Assembly (NCBI GenBank): GCA_013043985.1
Contig: JABEVJ010000323.1
Coordinates: 1-38,086 of the forward strand
Direction: 5' to 3'
DNA from: Legionellales bacterium
GTDB lineage: Bacteria > Pseudomonadota > Gammaproteobacteria > UBA1113
DNA length: 38,086 bases
The translations under genes and the position numbers were made by a program. A model generated the notes under the pieces. That model was not told the DNA's origin. It made no database searches and worked only from the letters and a program-made list of their open reading frames with translations. Below are positions 6,348 to 30,933 of the stretch, piece after piece. Each line of letters starts with the position of its first letter. Within the stretch, counting starts at the first letter, position 1.

Positions 6348-7745
6348 TTATTTAAAAGGACTCACTGTGTAAGGTTGTTGCGGTGAAGGTGCATTTGGAG
6401 CTAAAGGCGGATTATTTGGGCACTGTGCATAATAATCGGGTGTTTGAAAGTAAGAAGGACTTTGCCGAGGTGCATTAGGCTGACTGTAAGAAAAGGGCAG
6501 GTTGGAGACAAAATTCGAGCTGGGTAGCATTTGCGGCGGTTGTGCAACGGATAGAGGCGGGTTATTTTTGAGCGCTGCTTTGAATCCATGAAACTCGTAA
6601 ACTTGTTGATTATTTGCTGTTTTTATGGAGTTCACATTAAAATACTGACCTAATTGTTTAAGTGCATATTGAGTTGATAGGTGAACATTTGCCTTAGGGA
6701 CAAACAGAATCTTATTTCCTGATTGCTGAATCAAGAAGTGTTCTGCCAGAAAAGGATCTTGATGTTTTAGGTAAGCTGCAACTTCGTTTGGATGAGTTGG
6801 GTTTGCCAGAGAGCCAGCCTCCTGTTCTACGCTAGAGACTATCAGAGGAGATGTCATTGCAGATGCCTGTTGCTGAAGTGTGGACTGCCTTTGAAGTGGC
6901 TTGGAAGGTTGAAATACACGATCAATACGAGCGTAAAAGGGTCTCAGGGGAGCTGTAAAGAAACCAATAAGTCGCCATGCTAATGAAGGCCTAATTGATG
7001 ATCTGATTGAGTGAGGCAATAGCTCTGGATGGTTTAATCGAAAATTTCTAAAGGTTCCTGCCTGAGCTTTAATGTGGAGTGAACCTGTATATAAAGTGAT
7101 GGCCTCAGATTGTCCTTGACGTATCTTTTGTTGTTTTTTCCTGTTGTCAGCAGCTTGTTTAAGCTCTTTTTCAATAAAAGGGATTTGTCTTGCCAATGAT
7201 TGTTTTGAGTCAACTAAAGTAGCAGCCAAAGCAGAAATCATCGCAGAGTCCTGTGGGGCAACAAGCGGAATTTTAATCACTTTAGCTTTGGGCTCGAGGC
7301 GCGGGTAAGCTGCTTTCAGAGCTAATTTTGCGCCATTAATCGCCGCGTTAATATATTTATCAACGGAAGAATTGCTACAAGTATTAAAAACAACAATTTC
7401 TCCATTAGTATTACAAACCAGTGTGAGAAATTCGGTATTCAAAATCAGGCTTGGAAAGCAAAAAAAGGTATTATTGCTCTTGTTTATCAGATCGAGCGAT
7501 GCAGCCATATTGGTATAGATATTTGTGCTCAAGTGCTGAGGACGTGTACTGCCATGGCCTTGAGAGTCCTCTGTACTGGTGACGGTTTTGTAGATAAGAT
7601 TGGTTTTGGGAGTGATATCCGAATGGTTTACTGTTTGTGTGTTGAGATTACCAGGTATAAGCAGGGCAATATTATGCATTCCGATAGCTCGGGAAGAGGC
7701 AATAATGCCGTGAATATCAGAAGGCGTATAAAGATCATTTGCCAT
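6348..7745 (-). CDS. Orphan hypothetical protein (465 aa) with a Pro/Gln/Ser/Asn/Tyr-rich C-terminal tail
   Basis: A long uninterrupted ORF in a region without overlapping genes. I recognise no catalytic motif. The last ~75 aa are low complexity (NNPPLSVAQPPQMLPSS...SPSYFQTPDYYAQCPNNPPLAPNAPSPQQPYTVSPFK). Confidence 0.6.
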   Translation of the reverse strand: MANDLYTPSDIHGIIASSRAIGMHNIALLIPGNLNTQTVNHSDITPKTNLIYKTVTSTEDSQGHGSTRPQHLSTNIYTNMAASLDLINKSNNTFFCFPSLILNTEFLTLVCNTNGEIVVFNTCSNSSVDKYINAAINGAKLALKAAYPRLEPKAKVIKIPLVAPQDSAMISALAATLVDSKQSLARQIPFIEKELKQAADNRKKQQKIRQGQSEAITLYTGSLHIKAQAGTFRNFRLNHPELLPHSIRSSIRPSLAWRLIGFFTAPLRPFYARIDRVFQPSKPLQRQSTLQQQASAMTSPLIVSSVEQEAGSLANPTHPNEVAAYLKHQDPFLAEHFLIQQSGNKILFVPKANVHLSTQYALKQLGQYFNVNSIKTANNQQVYEFHGFKAALKNNPPLSVAQPPQMLPSSNFVSNLPFSYSQPNAPRQSPSYFQTPDYYAQCPNNPPLAPNAPSPQQPYTVSPFK

Positions 7746-7807
7746 GACACACTCCTTTGTTTAAAAAAATCAGGCAGCACAGTTATATCAAATATTTCAT
7801 ACTTATT

Positions 7808-11552: not shown

Positions 11553-12896
11553 ATGCAAGAACAAAATTCAATTCTTATGCAGCTTGATGGAATGAAGTTG
11601 CAACGGTTTCATTGGCGGATTATTTTTACCGCGGGCATGGGTTTTTTTACTGATGCCTATGATCTTTTTGTGATTGGTATTGTTACCGCCATATTGAGAC
11701 CTCTTTGGGGTTTATCCATTGAAGAGTTAGCTATATTAAACGGTGCTGCGTTGGCAGCAGCAGCCTGTGGCTCGGTTTTTTTTGGTATTCTTGCCGATAA
11801 ATTTGGCCGTAAAAAAATGTACGGGGTTGAAATTGCTATCTTATTTATTGGTGCAATCCTATCTGCCATCGCACCCTCATTTGGGTATTTACTTTTTTCG
11901 CGCATACTTGTCGGTTTAGGAATTGGGGGTGATTATCCGACCAGTGCTCTTATTGCAAGCGAAAATGCCGGAAAAGCACACAGAGGATTTTTAGTCCTGC
12001 TGGTTTTTGCTATGCAGGCTTTGGGATTAACGATAGGGCCATTGATCGCCTCTTTTTTTCTGTATATTAATATTCCCACTGACATGGTATGGCGCATTTT
12101 ATTAGGTATTGGTGCCATCCCTGCGGCATCGGTTTTCTATTTGCGACGCCGGATTCAAGAGTCTCCCCGTTTTCTGATGACTAAAAATGCCCCAGTTGAA
12201 GTGAGTCGGGTTATTGCGGATATCACGGGAATGAACCCAAATAATATTAAAAGGCTTCCTTTGCATTCTTTAATGAAAAAAAAATGGCTTATTTGTCTCT
12301 TCGGAACTGCAGGTGCTTGGTTTTTGCTGGATATTGCTTTTTATGGTAACAGTGTGTCTTCCTTTTTAATTTTAAAAACCTTAAATCCAGCCGCAAATAT
12401 GTTAAAAAATACCTTATTATCTTCTTTGATTTTTTTGATATGTGCCGTTCCAGGTTATCTTGCAGCTGCTTTTTTTGTTGACAAAATAGGACGTAGATTC
12501 TTGCAGTTTCTTGGTTTTGCCATGATGGGCTTAATGTATCTCATTCTTGCTGGCATTCCTTCGATTACTCAACACGTCAATTGGTTTTTAATCGTGTTTG
12601 GGGTGAGCTATTTCTTTACTAATTTTGGCCCTAACACCACTACCTTTCTTATTCCCTCAGAAGTTTATCCAACCAGTATTCGCGGCAAGGCACATGGTTT
12701 TTCTGCAGCTGTGGGCAAGGTTGGGGCATTCATTGGAGCATTCTTTCTGCCCTTTGTTTTGGAAAAATTTGGTCTGCAGTTTACGATGGGCTTGATGGCT
12801 ATTGTCTGTGTATTAGGTGTATCGATTACTTTTCTTGTGCCTGAGATGAAGGGGCAGTCATTGGAGGTGACAGAGGAAATGGCGGAGGAGGGGTAA
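11553..12896 (+). CDS. MFS transporter, phosphate:H+ symporter (PHS/Pho84-like) type
   Basis: A protein with about 12 hydrophobic segments. The N-terminal GMGFFTDAYDLFVIG and ADKFGRKK motifs are characteristic of PHS-family MFS proteins. Confidence 0.7.
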   Translation: MQEQNSILMQLDGMKLQRFHWRIIFTAGMGFFTDAYDLFVIGIVTAILRPLWGLSIEELAILNGAALAAAACGSVFFGILADKFGRKKMYGVEIAILFIGAILSAIAPSFGYLLFSRILVGLGIGGDYPTSALIASENAGKAHRGFLVLLVFAMQALGLTIGPLIASFFLYINIPTDMVWRILLGIGAIPAASVFYLRRRIQESPRFLMTKNAPVEVSRVIADITGMNPNNIKRLPLHSLMKKKWLICLFGTAGAWFLLDIAFYGNSVSSFLILKTLNPAANMLKNTLLSSLIFLICAVPGYLAAAFFVDKIGRRFLQFLGFAMMGLMYLILAGIPSITQHVNWFLIVFGVSYFFTNFGPNTTTFLIPSEVYPTSIRGKAHGFSAAVGKVGAFIGAFFLPFVLEKFGLQFTMGLMAIVCVLGVSITFLVPEMKGQSLEVTEEMAEEG

Positions 12897-12917
12897 AAAG
12901 GGAGTTATTGGCAATAT

Positions 12918-13439
12918 CTACTCCATTTGAGACAACAATTTAACGATTGTTTTCATCGGCAAAAATAATTTATTCTTACGCTCAGGAAACTCAATAAATC
13001 CATATTTCTTATAAAATTTAACAGCCATGTCATTCTCAGCATCAACAGTGACGGCAACAGCAGATATTGTCTGACTAGATTCAAAGCTTTTTTGTAATGC
13101 ATTAATTAAAAGAATTTCACCATACTTTTTTTTCTGATGCTCAGTATTAACCGCCAAGCGACCTAATAAAATGGCAGGAACATGAGGATGGCGAGGCAAT
13201 TTTTTACTTATATCTCCAGGAAGTGCGTCTAAACTGATGCTTGTTGATGACAAAGCATAATAGCCAATTACAACATCTGAATGTTCAACTGTTAAAACAT
13301 AGGTTATAGCAATATCTCTTTTTCTGTATTGTGTTGCCTCTGTAATTAAATATCTATCAAGCGCATCTATTCCACAGGAAAAAAAACGCCTGTCATGATG
13401 CTCATCTAAACATTCTATGCATAATTTTTCATTACTCAT
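12918..13439 (-). CDS. GNAT acetyltransferase toxin (TacT/KacT-like)
   Basis: 173 aa, with FSCGIDALDRYL near the N-terminus and a GNAT core (GRLAVNTEHQKKKYGEILL ... FYKKYGF). It overlaps a DUF1778-type gene by 4 nt. Confidence 0.8.
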   Translation of the reverse strand: MSNEKLCIECLDEHHDRRFFSCGIDALDRYLITEATQYRKRDIAITYVLTVEHSDVVIGYYALSSTSISLDALPGDISKKLPRHPHVPAILLGRLAVNTEHQKKKYGEILLINALQKSFESSQTISAVAVTVDAENDMAVKFYKKYGFIEFPERKNKLFLPMKTIVKLLSQME

Positions 13440-13726
13440 TTGGCTGTAACCACTTTTTTGTAACGATTTCTTGCTTGAATTAAAGCCTTATTAGGCTCTG
13501 GTGGGTTCAATAGCGCATTAACAAAAGTTTTTTGATCTTCTAGTGAAAGAGTTAAAATCTTCTGTTGTTTGATTACATCAGCAGCCTTTTCTAATACACT
13601 ATTAACAGTAAAATCAGTTACAGAAAGACCGCTTAAAAAAGCGGCTTGCAGCACTATATCTTTTTGCTGTATGGTGCATCGGCTCTCAAGACGAGCTGAT
13701 TTTCGTAAAGTTTGACTCGTAGACAT
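13436..13726 (-). CDS. DUF1778 (TacA-like) RHH antitoxin
   Basis: RLESRCTIQQKDIVLQAAFLSGLSVTDF matches the DUF1778 pattern. I set the start at MSTSQ. The gene overlaps the GNAT gene start (ATGA-type overlap). Confidence 0.75.
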   Translation of the reverse strand: MSTSQTLRKSARLESRCTIQQKDIVLQAAFLSGLSVTDFTVNSVLEKAADVIKQQKILTLSLEDQKTFVNALLNPPEPNKALIQARNRYKKVVTAK

Positions 13727-13883
13727 TTTAAGACCTCTATAGTTTGAAGCAATCACTCATTACATAAGCGTACGTCATAATGACGTACAAATCAAGAATC
13801 ATTTGAGCAGGATTTAAAACATTGCCGAATTATATCCTAATTGTATAAGAGGCGAACTTGTCAAAAAATGATAGGTAGTAGGT

Positions 13884-28655: not shown

Positions 28656-29572
28656 GCCAGGAATCAATTTATGGGATTGTTTTACTGAATAAATCCTCTG
28701 GAGCTAGCTCCAATCGGGCTTTACAACAAGTTAAGCGTCTTTTTCAAGCTAAAAAAGCAGGGCATACGGGAACGCTTGATCCCTTGGCTTGCGGTATGTT
28801 GCCAATTTGCTTAGGCGAAGCAACGAAGTTTTCGCATTTTTGGCTTGATGCCGATAAACGTTATGAAGCGGTGCTTCAACTGGGGCAGACTTCATCAACT
28901 GGCGATGCTGAAGGGACACTTAGCGAAAAGAAAACCATTCCGGTGCTGGATGCCAGTGCCATTGAAAAGCTCTTATCCTCATTTCGAGGCACGATTTCTC
29001 AAATTCCTCCTATGTATTCTGCCCTGAAGCACCAAGGCCGTCCTTTATATGAATGGGTGCGCAATGGTCATGTCATCGAGCGTGCTGCACGCACGATTAC
29101 CATTCATCGCCTGACTCTGCTTGATTTTACGGAAGACACGATCAGATTGGATGTTCACTGTAGCAAAGGAACCTATATTCGCACCTTGGCCGAAGATATC
29201 GGCGAGCTGCTCGGTTGTGGTGCTTATTTGTCATCGCTTTATCGAATTAGTGTGTCACCCTTTGAATCCTCTCCTATGTATACTCTGACAGAGTTAATTG
29301 ATTTACCACAAGATAAACTCCTTGAATTAGTGCTGCCTGTATCTGCTGCGCTCGCGCACGTACCTGTGAAAAATGTAGTCATATCAGAAGCTCAAGCTTT
29401 GTTGCAGGGGAAAAAGTTGTCATGTGAGGCAGGAGTTGAGCAAAAAGGGATTTATCAATTGCAGACAGACACAGGACAATTTATTGGTATTGGTGAAATC
29501 AATGATGATGGGGTGTTGTCGGCAAAGCGGATGTTAAGTTCTGAGTTGGTGGGGTTAGGCAGAATAGCATAG
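28652..29572 (+). CDS. truB: tRNA pseudouridine(55) synthase
   Basis: GHTGTLDPLACG (catalytic Asp) and IPPMYSALK motifs. Its position after rbfA supports the call. Confidence 0.92.
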   Translation: MSQESIYGIVLLNKSSGASSNRALQQVKRLFQAKKAGHTGTLDPLACGMLPICLGEATKFSHFWLDADKRYEAVLQLGQTSSTGDAEGTLSEKKTIPVLDASAIEKLLSSFRGTISQIPPMYSALKHQGRPLYEWVRNGHVIERAARTITIHRLTLLDFTEDTIRLDVHCSKGTYIRTLAEDIGELLGCGAYLSSLYRISVSPFESSPMYTLTELIDLPQDKLLELVLPVSAALAHVPVKNVVISEAQALLQGKKLSCEAGVEQKGIYQLQTDTGQFIGIGEINDDGVLSAKRMLSSELVGLGRIA

Positions 29573-29584
29573 GATTTTTGAAAG

Positions 29585-29812
29585 ATGGATAAAATTCGGA
29601 TATCAATCACTGATCAATTAGCTAGCAGAATGAGATCAGTTATTTCTTCCAGGCAAAGCAATAAAATAATTATGCGTTTAATTGAAAAGGAGATTGAGAG
29701 ACGCGAACGTCTTCTGTATGATTGTGCTGTGTCTGTAGAAAGAGATGAGGCATTGCGCACAGAGATGGAAGATTGGGATACAGACTTTGCGCGGCCGCAA
29801 GAGGTTGAATAA
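29585..29812 (+). CDS. Ribbon-helix-helix antitoxin-like protein with no recognisable partner toxin
   Basis: The N-terminal pattern IRISITDQLASRMRSV ... IIMRLIEKEIERRE fits a CopG/RHH fold. The acidic tail EMEDWDTD resembles antitoxins paired with MazF/PemK-type toxins. The ORF that follows is only 36 aa (29812-29922). Confidence 0.5.
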   Translation: MDKIRISITDQLASRMRSVISSRQSNKIIMRLIEKEIERRERLLYDCAVSVERDEALRTEMEDWDTDFARPQEVE

Positions 29813-29922
29813 TGAAGGAAATGATAAATACGATCAATAGGGATTTTGCTGGTTTTAATGCACTTGGTGCATTAGCTGAAAAAATAGGGCAAATTGATGT
29901 TGATTGTCTGGAGGCTGAGTAA

Positions 29923-30471
29923 TTACAATTTTCGTAACTTCGCCAGAAGACTTTCTCTTAACTCTTTAGCAGGAGCGGATCTTTCTTCTAACACCAAATT
30001 TAAGCTTTCTATCAAAATCGCCTCATCTAGCATAGCGGGATCATTCACAATCTGATTTTTTAGTGACCAAGCAACGACCTCATGCCACCGCCATAAAGGA
30101 GAGGTATCGGAAAGCTTCATCACAGGATGAGGGAAGCGCGGACGGTTTCGGCGCAACCCTTTACTCCACAGCGAGACAGCTTGTTTTTTTAATTTTAAGC
30201 GTTTAGCTATTTCTGATTCTGATACCAAATTTTCAGGAGCAACACTGGTTACCTTTGCAGCAAGTGGCATGGTTTCAATTTGTTTGATAGCAGATAAAAT
30301 GGCTAACTCCAAGGATTTTTCCTCGCGTATAAAATCAAGGTAAACCGTTCCATTTCGAAAGTTGATTAAAGCATCATCACAGCCAGCTTCAAACAAGCAA
30401 TCCTCCAAGTCATCGGTGTTTTCATCGACACCACTTAACACTAATGTAAATTCATACTTTTTCATTTGCAA
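29923..30471 (-). CDS. Putative DNA-binding (HTH) protein, second gene of a two-gene module
   Basis: The N-terminal domain is YEFTLVLSG...LEDCLFEAGCDDALINF...VYLDFIRE. The C-terminal half has an HTH-like segment, SESEIAKRLKLKKQAVSLWSKG ... PLWRWHEVVAWS. It starts 13 nt after the stop of the disrupted upstream gene. Confidence 0.6.
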   Translation of the reverse strand: MQMKKYEFTLVLSGVDENTDDLEDCLFEAGCDDALINFRNGTVYLDFIREEKSLELAILSAIKQIETMPLAAKVTSVAPENLVSESEIAKRLKLKKQAVSLWSKGLRRNRPRFPHPVMKLSDTSPLWRWHEVVAWSLKNQIVNDPAMLDEAILIESLNLVLEERSAPAKELRESLLAKLRKL

Positions 30472-30483
30472 ATACCTCTCTTT

Positions 30484-30882
30484 CTAATGAAGACAACCGA
30501 CAACATGTCGCCTTATTTGTTTAGCATGTGTGGCATTATCACGCGGTGTTGACCAAATATACCCAAGATACTTCAAAATGCTAATTTCTGACTTGTTCTT
30601 TTACGCCAGAGTAATATTATAAAAACTTCACAATATGAATAACTATTGCTCGTTTTTATAATATTACCTGACATAAAATAACGGCGTCATAAACTTAGCA
30701 TTTTGAAGTATCTTGGGTATAGACATACCGCAACCTTCACGCTCTTGATGAGGGCAAAGTAGGCGACCCCATGCATGAGCCGAGTTGCCAGTTTTTTTAT
30801 ACCGCCATCCTCTCTCTTCCGCGTACTGAATTGCGGCTTCTATTTCTTTACTAGGATGCCTTGGTCTATGTGCAGCCTGCAT
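30484..30882 (-). pseudogene. Small Cys/His-rich gene (78 aa when restored) split by a MITE
   Basis: The upstream part is MQAAHRPRHPSKEIEAAIQYAEERGWRYKKTGNSAHAWGRLLCPHQEREGCGMS. After the repeat, the same frame continues IWSTPRDNATHAKQIRRHVVGCLH*. The current ORF stops inside the element at 30664. Confidence 0.75.
30558..30721. mobile_element. Family-3 MITE with perfect 27-bp terminal inverted repeats and TA target duplication
   Basis: tatacccaagatacttcaaaatgctaa (30558-30584) is the exact reverse complement of ttagcattttgaagtatcttgggtata (30695-30721). The interior shares cacaatatgaataactattgc with 23461-23621 and 37988-38086. Confidence 0.9.
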
Positions 30883-30900
30883 ATTTTCCTCTCTTTAGTA

Positions 30901-30933
30901 ATGATAATTGCTTTGTTGACGTTTGTCAACAAA
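30901..30933 (-). promoter_or_regulatory. Putative promoter with overlapping palindromic operator for the disrupted module
   Basis: The minus strand reads TTGACA, a 17-nt spacer, TATCAT, then GAGG 5 nt before the ATG. The inverted repeat tttgttgac-gttt-gtcaacaaa (30912-30933) overlaps the -35 and the spacer. Confidence 0.6.

Follow-up and report, generated by a model that had tools for sequence, protein, structure and literature searches.

Of the systems described so far, those that come closest to the locus reported here are HicAB toxin-antitoxin modules (HicA, PF07927; structures from Escherichia coli, 6HPB, Burkholderia pseudomallei, 4C26, and Yersinia pestis HicA3/HicB3, 4P78) and the phage defense candidate PDC-M06. 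HicAB modules share with it a small basic protein encoded first, a partner with an N-terminal alpha/beta domain and a predicted C-terminal DNA-binding domain, and a palindrome that overlaps the promoter. PDC-M06 (cassette CAS_00046, FAM_01986>>FAM_01364) is one of 145 untested phage defense candidates, is represented by 497 RefSeq instances, and was listed because at least one member lies within a BREX, DISARM, or type I restriction-modification (RM) locus (Payne et al. 2024, bioRxiv 10.1101/2024.01.29.577857). The main texts of the literature searched contain no mention of PDC-M06, and membership in it says nothing about mechanism, because no function has been demonstrated for it. The locus in question lies on a complete 38-kb contig (JABEVJ010000323.1; 38,086 nucleotides [nt], the window herein) of the metagenome-assembled genome (MAG) of a "Legionellales bacterium," where it forms a chromosomal cassette flanked by truB and a major facilitator superfamily transporter gene. 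Its two minus-strand genes, termed A and B here, belong to PDC-M06, and gene A has been split by a miniature inverted-repeat transposable element (MITE). We slightly favor the view that A and B form a HicAB-like, type II-style module of a toxin (A) and an antitoxin and autorepressor (B).

The insertion is in itself ordinary; its value lies in what the locus shows about a family that is common and that occurs on Y. pestis plasmid pMT1 and on enterobacterial phage-plasmids spreading resistance genes.

Assignment of the locus to PDC-M06

Hidden Markov model (HMM) comparison assigned both proteins to PDC-M06 nearly end to end. Protein A, with its reading frame restored as described below, matches the PADLOC model PDC-M06A PDLC04383 (E value of 5.4e-26; residues 5 to 77, profile positions 2 to 77 of 87) and five further PDC-M06A models, and protein B matches PDC-M06B PDLC04388 (E value of 4.3e-31; residues 3 to 170, profile positions 1 to 165 of 174). 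The gene order of the family, A followed by B, adjacent and on the same strand, is also that of this locus. The window copy differs from the catalogued family in that its gene A is split and in that it lies outside any BREX, DISARM, or RM locus. The original prediction, made from the window sequence by itself, had held the pair to be undescribed, which does not stand: both proteins were already represented in PADLOC (PDC-M06A/B) and in PHROG families, and homologues from the phage-plasmid Cyrano had been deposited as HicA and HicB. A match of the pair to a well-characterized system outside the toxin-antitoxin class, which would have refuted it, was not found.

Precise excision of the MITE restores gene A

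As predicted, deletion of 162 bp, that is, the MITE and one TA dinucleotide, joins two minus-strand frames into a 78-codon open reading frame (ORF) that starts at position 30882, and the product is MQAAHRPRHPSKEIEAAIQYAEERGWRYKKTGNSAHAWGRLLCPHQEREGCGMSIWSTPRDNATHAKQIRRHVVGCLH; deletion of 160 or 164 bp leaves the frame broken. In its unrestored state, gene A reads on into the MITE and yields a product of 72 amino acids (aa) (NCBI HKM04_11330). The positions of the two gene parts and of the other features of the locus are listed in Table 1.

Table 1. Features of the A-B locus, numbered by window position
Feature	Position	Strand	Details
Gene B (PDC-M06B family), intact, 180 aa	29923..30465	-	GAGAGG Shine-Dalgarno sequence 9 nt upstream
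Gene A, 3' part	30484..30559	-	Codons 55 to 78 (IWSTPRDNATHAKQIRRHVVGCLH) and stop codon TAG (30484-30486); includes the downstream TA copy
Weak promoter-like site TTAGCA-17-TATATT	30556..30584	-	Composed of the MITE terminal repeat, TA, and flank; faces gene B; 9/12 matches
MITE, 160 bp	30560..30719		Perfect 25-bp terminal inverted repeats (TACCCAAGATACTTCAAAATGCTAA), inner 16-bp inverted repeat; TA duplication at 30558-30559 and 30720-30721
Gene A, 5' part (PDC-M06A family)	30720..30882	-	Codons 1 to 54 (...EREGCGMS); ends in the upstream TA copy (30720-30721)
Sigma-70-type promoter of the A-B operon	30901..30929	-	-35 TTGACA, 17-nt spacer, -10 TATCAT
Palindromic putative operator TTTGTTGAC-aaac-GTCAACAAA	30912..30933		Core GTTGAC-N4-GTCAAC at 30915-30930

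Homologue searches and alignments support the restored ORF as the true ancestral gene A. A search with the restored protein returned 332 homologues of 75 to 85 aa that are 60 to 75% identical to it and cover 94 to 100% of its length, among them homologues with the ...IWSTP... type of C terminus that the original prediction had anticipated. In an alignment of 30 homologues, W56, S57, T58, P59, and C76, all of which are supplied solely by the restored C terminus, are invariant, and H65, Q68, I69, and H78 are almost invariant; the restored pattern IWSTPR..HAKQIRR..C.H agrees with the residues that are conserved among more than 260 homologues. Across a larger alignment of 269 members, T58 and P59 each account for more than 96% of the residues present and S57 for 88%, and W56 is found in 75%, its replacement being mostly Tyr. 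A profile search against 1.84 billion cluster representatives retrieved 849 clusters at 50% identity.

The start of gene B, which NCBI labels "DNA-binding protein," is placed by the homologue alignment and by the NCBI call at ATG 30465 (180 aa) in preference to TTG 30471 (182 aa). Protein B is therefore most likely 180 aa long, and not 182 aa as first thought, and given this start the stop codon of gene A lies 18 nt upstream of B instead of 13 nt.

Because the restored protein keeps every invariant residue and the terminal inverted repeats (TIRs) are perfect, the insertion appears recent when set against the extent to which other copies of the MITE have decayed, and gene A was most likely knocked out only recently.

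The inserted element belongs to a MITE family of Legionellales

The element had been described as 164 bp long with perfect 27-bp TIRs flanked by TA. Its plus-strand arms (30558-30584 and 30695-30721) are indeed perfectly complementary over 27 nt, with the complementarity broken at nt 28, and a repeat search extended the inverted repeat to 30 nt at 97% and recovered the inner 16-nt inverted repeat as perfect too. The outer TA of each arm is the target site duplication, because related copies are flanked by a variable dinucleotide and then TA, so that the element proper measures 160 bp with 25-bp TIRs; its termini begin TACCCAAGATAC... The 25-nt TIR core occurs at just two sites in the window, with none expected from 100 shuffles. 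As RNA, the MITE folds into a single long hairpin (-84.5 kcal/mol). The sole ORF within it (33 aa) has no family support, and a search of the whole window against Rfam at the gathering threshold returned one tRNA and no match at the MITE.

The element is a member of a real MITE family, as its description as a MITE implied. A search of species-representative genomes located a 20-nt TIR core in 50 stretches, nearly all of them from Legionellales, including isolate genomes of Legionella yabuuchiae, L. brunensis, L. steelei, L. steigerwaltii, L. maceachernii, and L. resiliens; two MAGs had a dozen or more matching contigs each, with more than 20 in one MAG. These 50 loci contain 40 copies with paired TIRs, which are flanked by TA on the left in 34 cases, on the right in 35, and on both sides in 30. 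Nineteen of the paired copies are 159 to 162 bp long, 3 are about 150 bp, and 11 are "mini" elements of 44 to 46 bp. The window MITE is 66 to 77% identical to the other full-length copies, which are about 84% identical to one another. The mini elements, found in loci of the Legionellales MAGs SW_27 and nzgw544, consist of two TIRs back to back, most of them still flanked by TA, and may be internal-deletion derivatives or products of excision and repair.

In its length of about 160 bp, its 25-bp TIRs, its TA duplication, its lack of supported coding capacity, its many copies per genome in relatives, and its long RNA hairpin, the family is like the TA-duplicating MITEs that transposases of the IS630/Tc1-mariner type mobilize in bacteria (for example, Correia-like elements). 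It is unlike them in having no identified cognate transposase: none was found in the window or between the distant TIR pairs of two loci (L041 and L045), where the intervening ORFs are ordinary genes, and no named MITE family was matched. The one pointer to its transposase partner is the duplication of TA, by which the partner may be of the IS630/Tc1-mariner type. Of the Coxiella elements (PMC5896051), QMITE1 measures about 400 bp, and QMITE2 measures about 190 bp and has direct repeats of 7 to 9 bp; both were considered as relatives and ruled out by their size and type of direct repeat.

Two other origins of the interruption were weighed, namely, misassembly of a repeat in a MAG and a hairpin like a repetitive extragenic palindrome that had always been part of the locus. 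Repeats in a MAG contig can be misassembled, the window holds a single copy of the MITE, and no cognate transposase turned up in the fetched loci either. Against these origins stand the exact duplication of TA and the in-frame restoration of 24 codons with family-invariant residues, which a chimeric join would not produce, and the same TIRs bound TA-flanked elements of about 160 bp in many Legionellales, including the isolates of six named Legionella species. We regard both origins as very improbable.

The end of the MITE also contributes to a weak promoter-like site facing gene B (Table 1). Such sites are not enriched over shuffled sequence (8 versus 5.0 ± 2.2), and this one therefore counts only as a lead. 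Were it active, expression of B would no longer depend on the operator.

A conserved palindrome overlaps the promoter of the A-B operon

The TTGACA-17-TATCAT promoter of the original prediction and the palindrome overlapping it are both present, and both are intact at this locus. With 11 of 12 matches, the promoter is the top-scoring site between positions 29500 and 31300, and on the coding (minus) strand its -35 box sits inside the promoter-side half-site of the palindrome. We scanned for GTTGAC-N4-GTCAAC with up to one mismatch, 20 to 450 nt upstream of B, in all homologous loci with enough sequence. The motif was found in 69 of 75 loci and had no further match in the 473,793 nt of those loci; the window contains one match, as do the Cyrano locus and the locus of Salmonella phage SSU5. 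The consensus is (T)GTTGACA-NN-TGTCAAC(A). The -35 box reads TTGACA in 62 of 79 operator sites, and 48 of 58 unique loci have, 16 to 18 nt further on, a -10 box that agrees with the consensus at 4 or more of its 6 positions. This operator-like palindrome is conserved across homologous loci together with its overlap with the promoter, and it is retained in genomes from 38% to 59% GC. Its half-sites are 10 bp apart from center to center and would therefore lie on the same face of the helix, as would be expected of a dimeric helix-turn-helix (HTH) protein. A conserved 16-bp putative operator that contains the -35 box is new for this family.

Genes A and B are strictly linked on chromosomes, plasmids, and phages

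Gene neighborhoods were compared at 84 loci seeded with B, of which 80 are metagenomic and 2 are viral, the remaining 2 coming from earlier searches. In 69 of these loci, B is immediately preceded by a codirectional A-family ORF, mostly at a spacing of -14 to +13 nt, and several of the others simply have too little upstream sequence. In neighborhoods seeded with A, B follows A in five of five. The co-occurrence on which the original prediction depended is thus borne out, the two families being strictly linked with A directly upstream of B. The A-seeded neighborhoods are housekeeping regions (the suf operon; csrA-alaS-recX-recA) or lie beside resolvase and transposase genes, and such settings look like the isolated-cassette contexts typical of toxin-antitoxin modules.

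In PHROGs, protein A falls into phrog_5923 (unknown function) and protein B into phrog_2620 ("excisionase and transcriptional regulator"; E value of 6e-38). By tblastn, the pair was located on about 300 to 350 plasmids of 95 to 120 kb, mostly nonmobilizable, from Escherichia, Enterobacter, Yersinia, Citrobacter, and Klebsiella. All 63 Yersinia plasmid records match both proteins, and those listed are of the Y. pestis pMT1 type (Y_RS21685/Y_RS21680 in pMT1). The pair is likewise present in phage SSU5 (SSU5_055/SSU5_054) and in the Escherichia coli phage-plasmid Cyrano. The SSU5 and pMT1 pairs share with the window their gene order, the GTTGAC-N4-GTCAAC motif, and a protein B that is 40 to 47% identical to the window B; they differ in occupying a fixed site of a phage-plasmid backbone, whereas the window copy is chromosomal. 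That site, which Cyrano has in common with SSU5 and pMT1, is bordered on one side by the gene for a DnaE-like DNA polymerase and on the other by a recombination block (UvsY/SSB/exonuclease), from which the pair is divergent, and this order is conserved across genera. For the SSU5 and pMT1 pairs, annotation is limited to the names "hypothetical protein," "DNA-binding protein," and "excisionase and transcriptional regulator"; "helix-turn-helix transcriptional regulator" is a further database name, and the depositors of Cyrano chose "HicA toxin protein" and "putative antitoxin HicB." Expression of the Cyrano pair in the lysogen was 30-fold and 14-fold over local background (Misson et al., PMC9928086). 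The independent naming as HicA and HicB, which is a label and not the outcome of a functional assay, and the expression in the lysogen count in favor of the toxin-antitoxin reading.

The fixed site and the PHROG label of B, together with matches of B to AlpA and HTH_17, would suit a nontoxic regulatory pair of mobile elements, in which B is an autoregulator of the AlpA/excisionase type and A a zinc-binding coregulator or antirepressor, and in which the MITE merely removed a modulator. We consider such a pair unlikely. Many chromosomal copies are isolated cassettes in housekeeping surroundings that offer no mobile element for such a pair to control, and the operator, which occurs a single time at each locus and has no other match in 474 kb of flanking DNA, leaves no regulon visible.

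Phage defense in the strict sense, with the ferredoxin-like domain of B sensing a phage cue and freeing or activating the effector A in an abortive infection, overlaps with the toxin-antitoxin reading and differs from it in the role of the module and in B acting as the sensor. The PADLOC listing, with at least one embedded member, favors it, as does the carriage of the pair as phage-plasmid cargo that is expressed in the lysogen in the manner of a moron. None of the seven neighborhoods inspected, the window included, is a defense island, plain toxin-antitoxin modules are also commonly embedded in RM and BREX loci, and the candidates of the catalogue were described by its authors as untested (10.1101/2024.01.29.577857). 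On balance, we find this role doubtful.

Gene A is lost repeatedly while gene B and the operator persist

The state that the MITE has produced here recurs by other routes. Four independent metagenomic loci carry nonsense codons in gene A: TGG is changed to TGA at the invariant W38 in L095, TGA replaces the codon for R27 in L087/L088 and that for C43 in L125, and L096 has TAG near G25 together with a frameshift. A genetic code in which TGA specifies Trp was ruled out for the stop at W38 of L095: the remaining TGA codons stand in place of Arg and Cys codons, and no in-frame TGA occurs in the neighboring B genes. Two further loci (L071 and L107) retain fragments of gene A only. In at least seven loci, the operator lies 37 to 97 nt before an intact B with no trace of A, and the B proteins of loci with a decayed A show full HMM coverage nearly throughout. 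B together with its operator is hence viable without A. This pattern resembles the decay of toxin-antitoxin modules, and the repeated loss of A with B and the operator intact is new for this family.

The same loci bear on the idea of a regulatory pair from both sides. Persistence of B and the operator by themselves at many loci is what one would see if B were the core function, and against this stand the four independent nonsense mutations in A.

On plasmids, B was also recorded without a detectable A in Vibrio (12), Mycobacterium (5), Acinetobacter (3), and E. coli (about 34), where the short A query may miss divergent copies.

Protein A shares its predicted topology with HicA

Protein A is basic (isoelectric point [pI] of 9.8, net charge of +6). 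Its AlphaFold 2 (AF2) model (mean predicted local distance difference test [pLDDT] score of 85.5) has the order alpha-beta-beta-beta-alpha, with helices at residues 12 to 23 and 62 to 75 and strands at 27 to 30, 37 to 42, and 52 to 56. This is the topology of both the double-stranded RNA-binding domain (dsRBD) and HicA. Foldseek searches with the model gave weak dsRBD matches only in the PDB and, in BFVD, family members and a "HicA-like toxin" (E value of 0.13, TM score of 0.49). A HicA profile was then built from five PDB sequences and 120 homologues (search from Burkholderia pseudomallei HicA) and aligned with A by hhalign, which returned a borderline probability of 49.5% over 60 columns with a P value of 1.7e-4, compared to 0.031 for the reversed-sequence control. 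The alignment pairs GW with GW and G32-x-S34-x-H36 with the GSH motif of HicA that contains the catalytic His, which suggests, but does not prove, homology of A to HicA.

The window protein does not match HicA_toxin (PF07927) at the gathering score, PDB sequence-profile searches with the A and B family alignments gave nothing significant, and HicA genes are essentially absent from the fetched homologue loci. A match to Cas5a (E value of 0.0034) was rejected as spurious, as it spans a 44-residue linker.

Protein A exceeds HicA in length by about 20 residues, and the five aligned HicA sequences have neither its conserved Cys3-His set nor its WSTP motif. Conservation across the 269 family members is 96% at H9, 98.5% at W26, 98% at H36, and 99.6% at C43. 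C51 is found in 90% and replaced by His in 8%, C76 makes up 100% of nongap residues, and H78 makes up 86% of them, with an occasional Cys. Such interchange of Cys and His, seen here at two positions out of four, commonly marks a structural zinc site and suggests one in A. A likely zinc site, and the absence of significant likeness to any nuclease structure, would also fit a coregulator of the regulatory type described above; the layout does not, since a basic small protein followed, at a tight or overlapping junction, by a DNA-binding protein with an acidic domain is that of HicAB.

Protein B has a predicted architecture unlike that of HicB

The AF2 model of protein B (pLDDT of 90.3) comprises a ferredoxin-like N-terminal domain (residues about 1 to 76) with the fold beta-alpha-beta-beta-alpha-beta, a winged HTH domain (about 83 to 136), and a C-terminal helical hairpin (144 to 179). 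Foldseek returned generic ferredoxin-like matches only (PII, ACT, and acylphosphatase; E values of 0.01 to 0.05), and no HicB was among the matches listed. Nothing reached the threshold for B in Pfam or NCBIfam, and up to 22 of 30 family members gave weak matches to HTH_23, HTH_3, HTH_17, and AlpA. The N-terminal domain is acidic (pI of 4.25, net charge of -9.5), with E21, D22, C29, and D31 invariant and D30, N35, and R47 almost invariant. This high conservation could also be expected of a regulator of mobile elements, and the invariant charged residues are compatible with a sensor of a phage cue.

The N-terminal domain of HicB has a partial RNase-H-like fold. By contrast, that of B is modeled as ferredoxin-like, and its DNA-binding part as an AlpA/MerR-like winged HTH with a helical hairpin; by these models, B is not HicB. 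The resemblance to hicAB operons put forward in the original prediction therefore stands in part: the topology of A and the GW...G-S-x-H alignment speak for it, and the alignment probability of only 49.5%, the lack of a HicA match at threshold in Pfam or among the PDB matches listed, and the build of B speak against it. The locus is a member of PDC-M06, is not demonstrably HicA, and works at most like HicAB.

A possible mode of action

The layout is the generic one of type II toxin-antitoxin systems, with two small codirectional genes in one operon and a palindrome at the promoter. If the pair works as a HicAB-like module, A would be a growth-inhibiting effector that most plausibly acts on RNA, with H36, at the position of the catalytic His of HicA, as the candidate catalytic residue. 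The Cys3-His zinc site (C43, C51, C76, and H78) would probably stabilize A by holding its C-terminal helix to the sheet. The acidic ferredoxin-like domain of B, opposite in charge to the basic A, may neutralize A, and a dimer of B may bind GTTGAC-N4-GTCAAC through the winged HTH and repress the promoter of its own operon. The MITE removes the third strand, the second helix, and two of the four putative zinc ligands of A, so that only B can stay functional; the locus would then reproduce the B-only state of other genomes. The role of such a module could be plasmid or prophage maintenance, abortive-infection defense, or both.

More tentatively, PDC-M06 as a whole may be a distinct toxin-antitoxin or abortive-infection family, with a zinc-stabilized, HicA-like, RNA-targeting toxin and an antitoxin that joins an acidic ferredoxin-like neutralizing or sensing domain to an AlpA-type winged HTH. 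The MITE, the nonsense codons, and the B-only loci would in that case reflect repeated selection against the toxin, under a near-universal operator that extends from Legionellales to high-GC genomes, pMT1, and SSU5-like elements.

Several observations weigh against reading A and B as toxin and antitoxin. Protein A has no match at threshold in Pfam or NCBIfam, and a single one of 30 members touches HicA_toxin (E value of 0.14). In the Foldseek search of A against the PDB, the best E value was 0.6 and no HicA was among the 50 matches listed. The excess of A loss is partly a matter of ascertainment, because the loci were found via B, and the check seeded with A comprises five neighborhoods. The N-terminal domain of B is as conserved as A, which one would not usually see in a plain antitoxin; this domain might instead bind a ligand or act as an enzyme. 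The constant backbone site of the pair in SSU5-like phage-plasmids of several genera could equally reflect a regulatory role in their life cycle. Finally, the searched literature reports toxicity, neutralization, DNA binding, or defense for no member of PDC-M06.

The family has become testable through the operator, the candidate residue H36 and the zinc residues, the three-domain model of B, and the natural knockouts of A, which predict a harmful partner. If the toxin-antitoxin interpretation is true, PDC-M06 would represent a new HicA-like branch of toxin-antitoxin and defense biology with an unusual antitoxin architecture, and B with its operator would provide a ready repressor-operator pair that is apparently portable across very different genomes.

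Other small cassettes in the window and in a homologous locus

A second toxin-antitoxin pair with a TacT-type layout lies on the minus strand at positions 12918-13756, just upstream of the mraZ/dcw cluster, where a TacA-like antitoxin gene (13436-13756; Pfam TacA1, E value of 3e-22) overlaps a GNAT acetyltransferase gene (12918-13439). The plus-strand ORF at 370-909 encodes the C-terminal part only of HipA (HipA_C profile positions 68 to 211 of 213, E value of 8.5e-32) and is probably what a truncation or frameshift has left of a HipA kinase toxin gene near the end of the contig.

Two overlapping ORFs of 75 and 36 aa (29585-29922, plus strand) take up the space that separates truB from the 3' end of gene B, and neither of them matches a Pfam or NCBIfam family; the 36-aa ORF ends one base before the stop codon of B. 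As truB is followed by these small ORFs and the A-B cassette and not by rpsO-pnp, the spot may accumulate small cassettes. On an 866-kb contig that carries an A-B pair (L052), a block of a DUF2975 gene, a gene for an HTH_26 protein, and a 109-aa ORF occurs twice (6437-7753 and 12545-13691), and PhdYeFM and PIN toxin-antitoxin genes are also close by, which points to a local cluster of small mobile cassettes.

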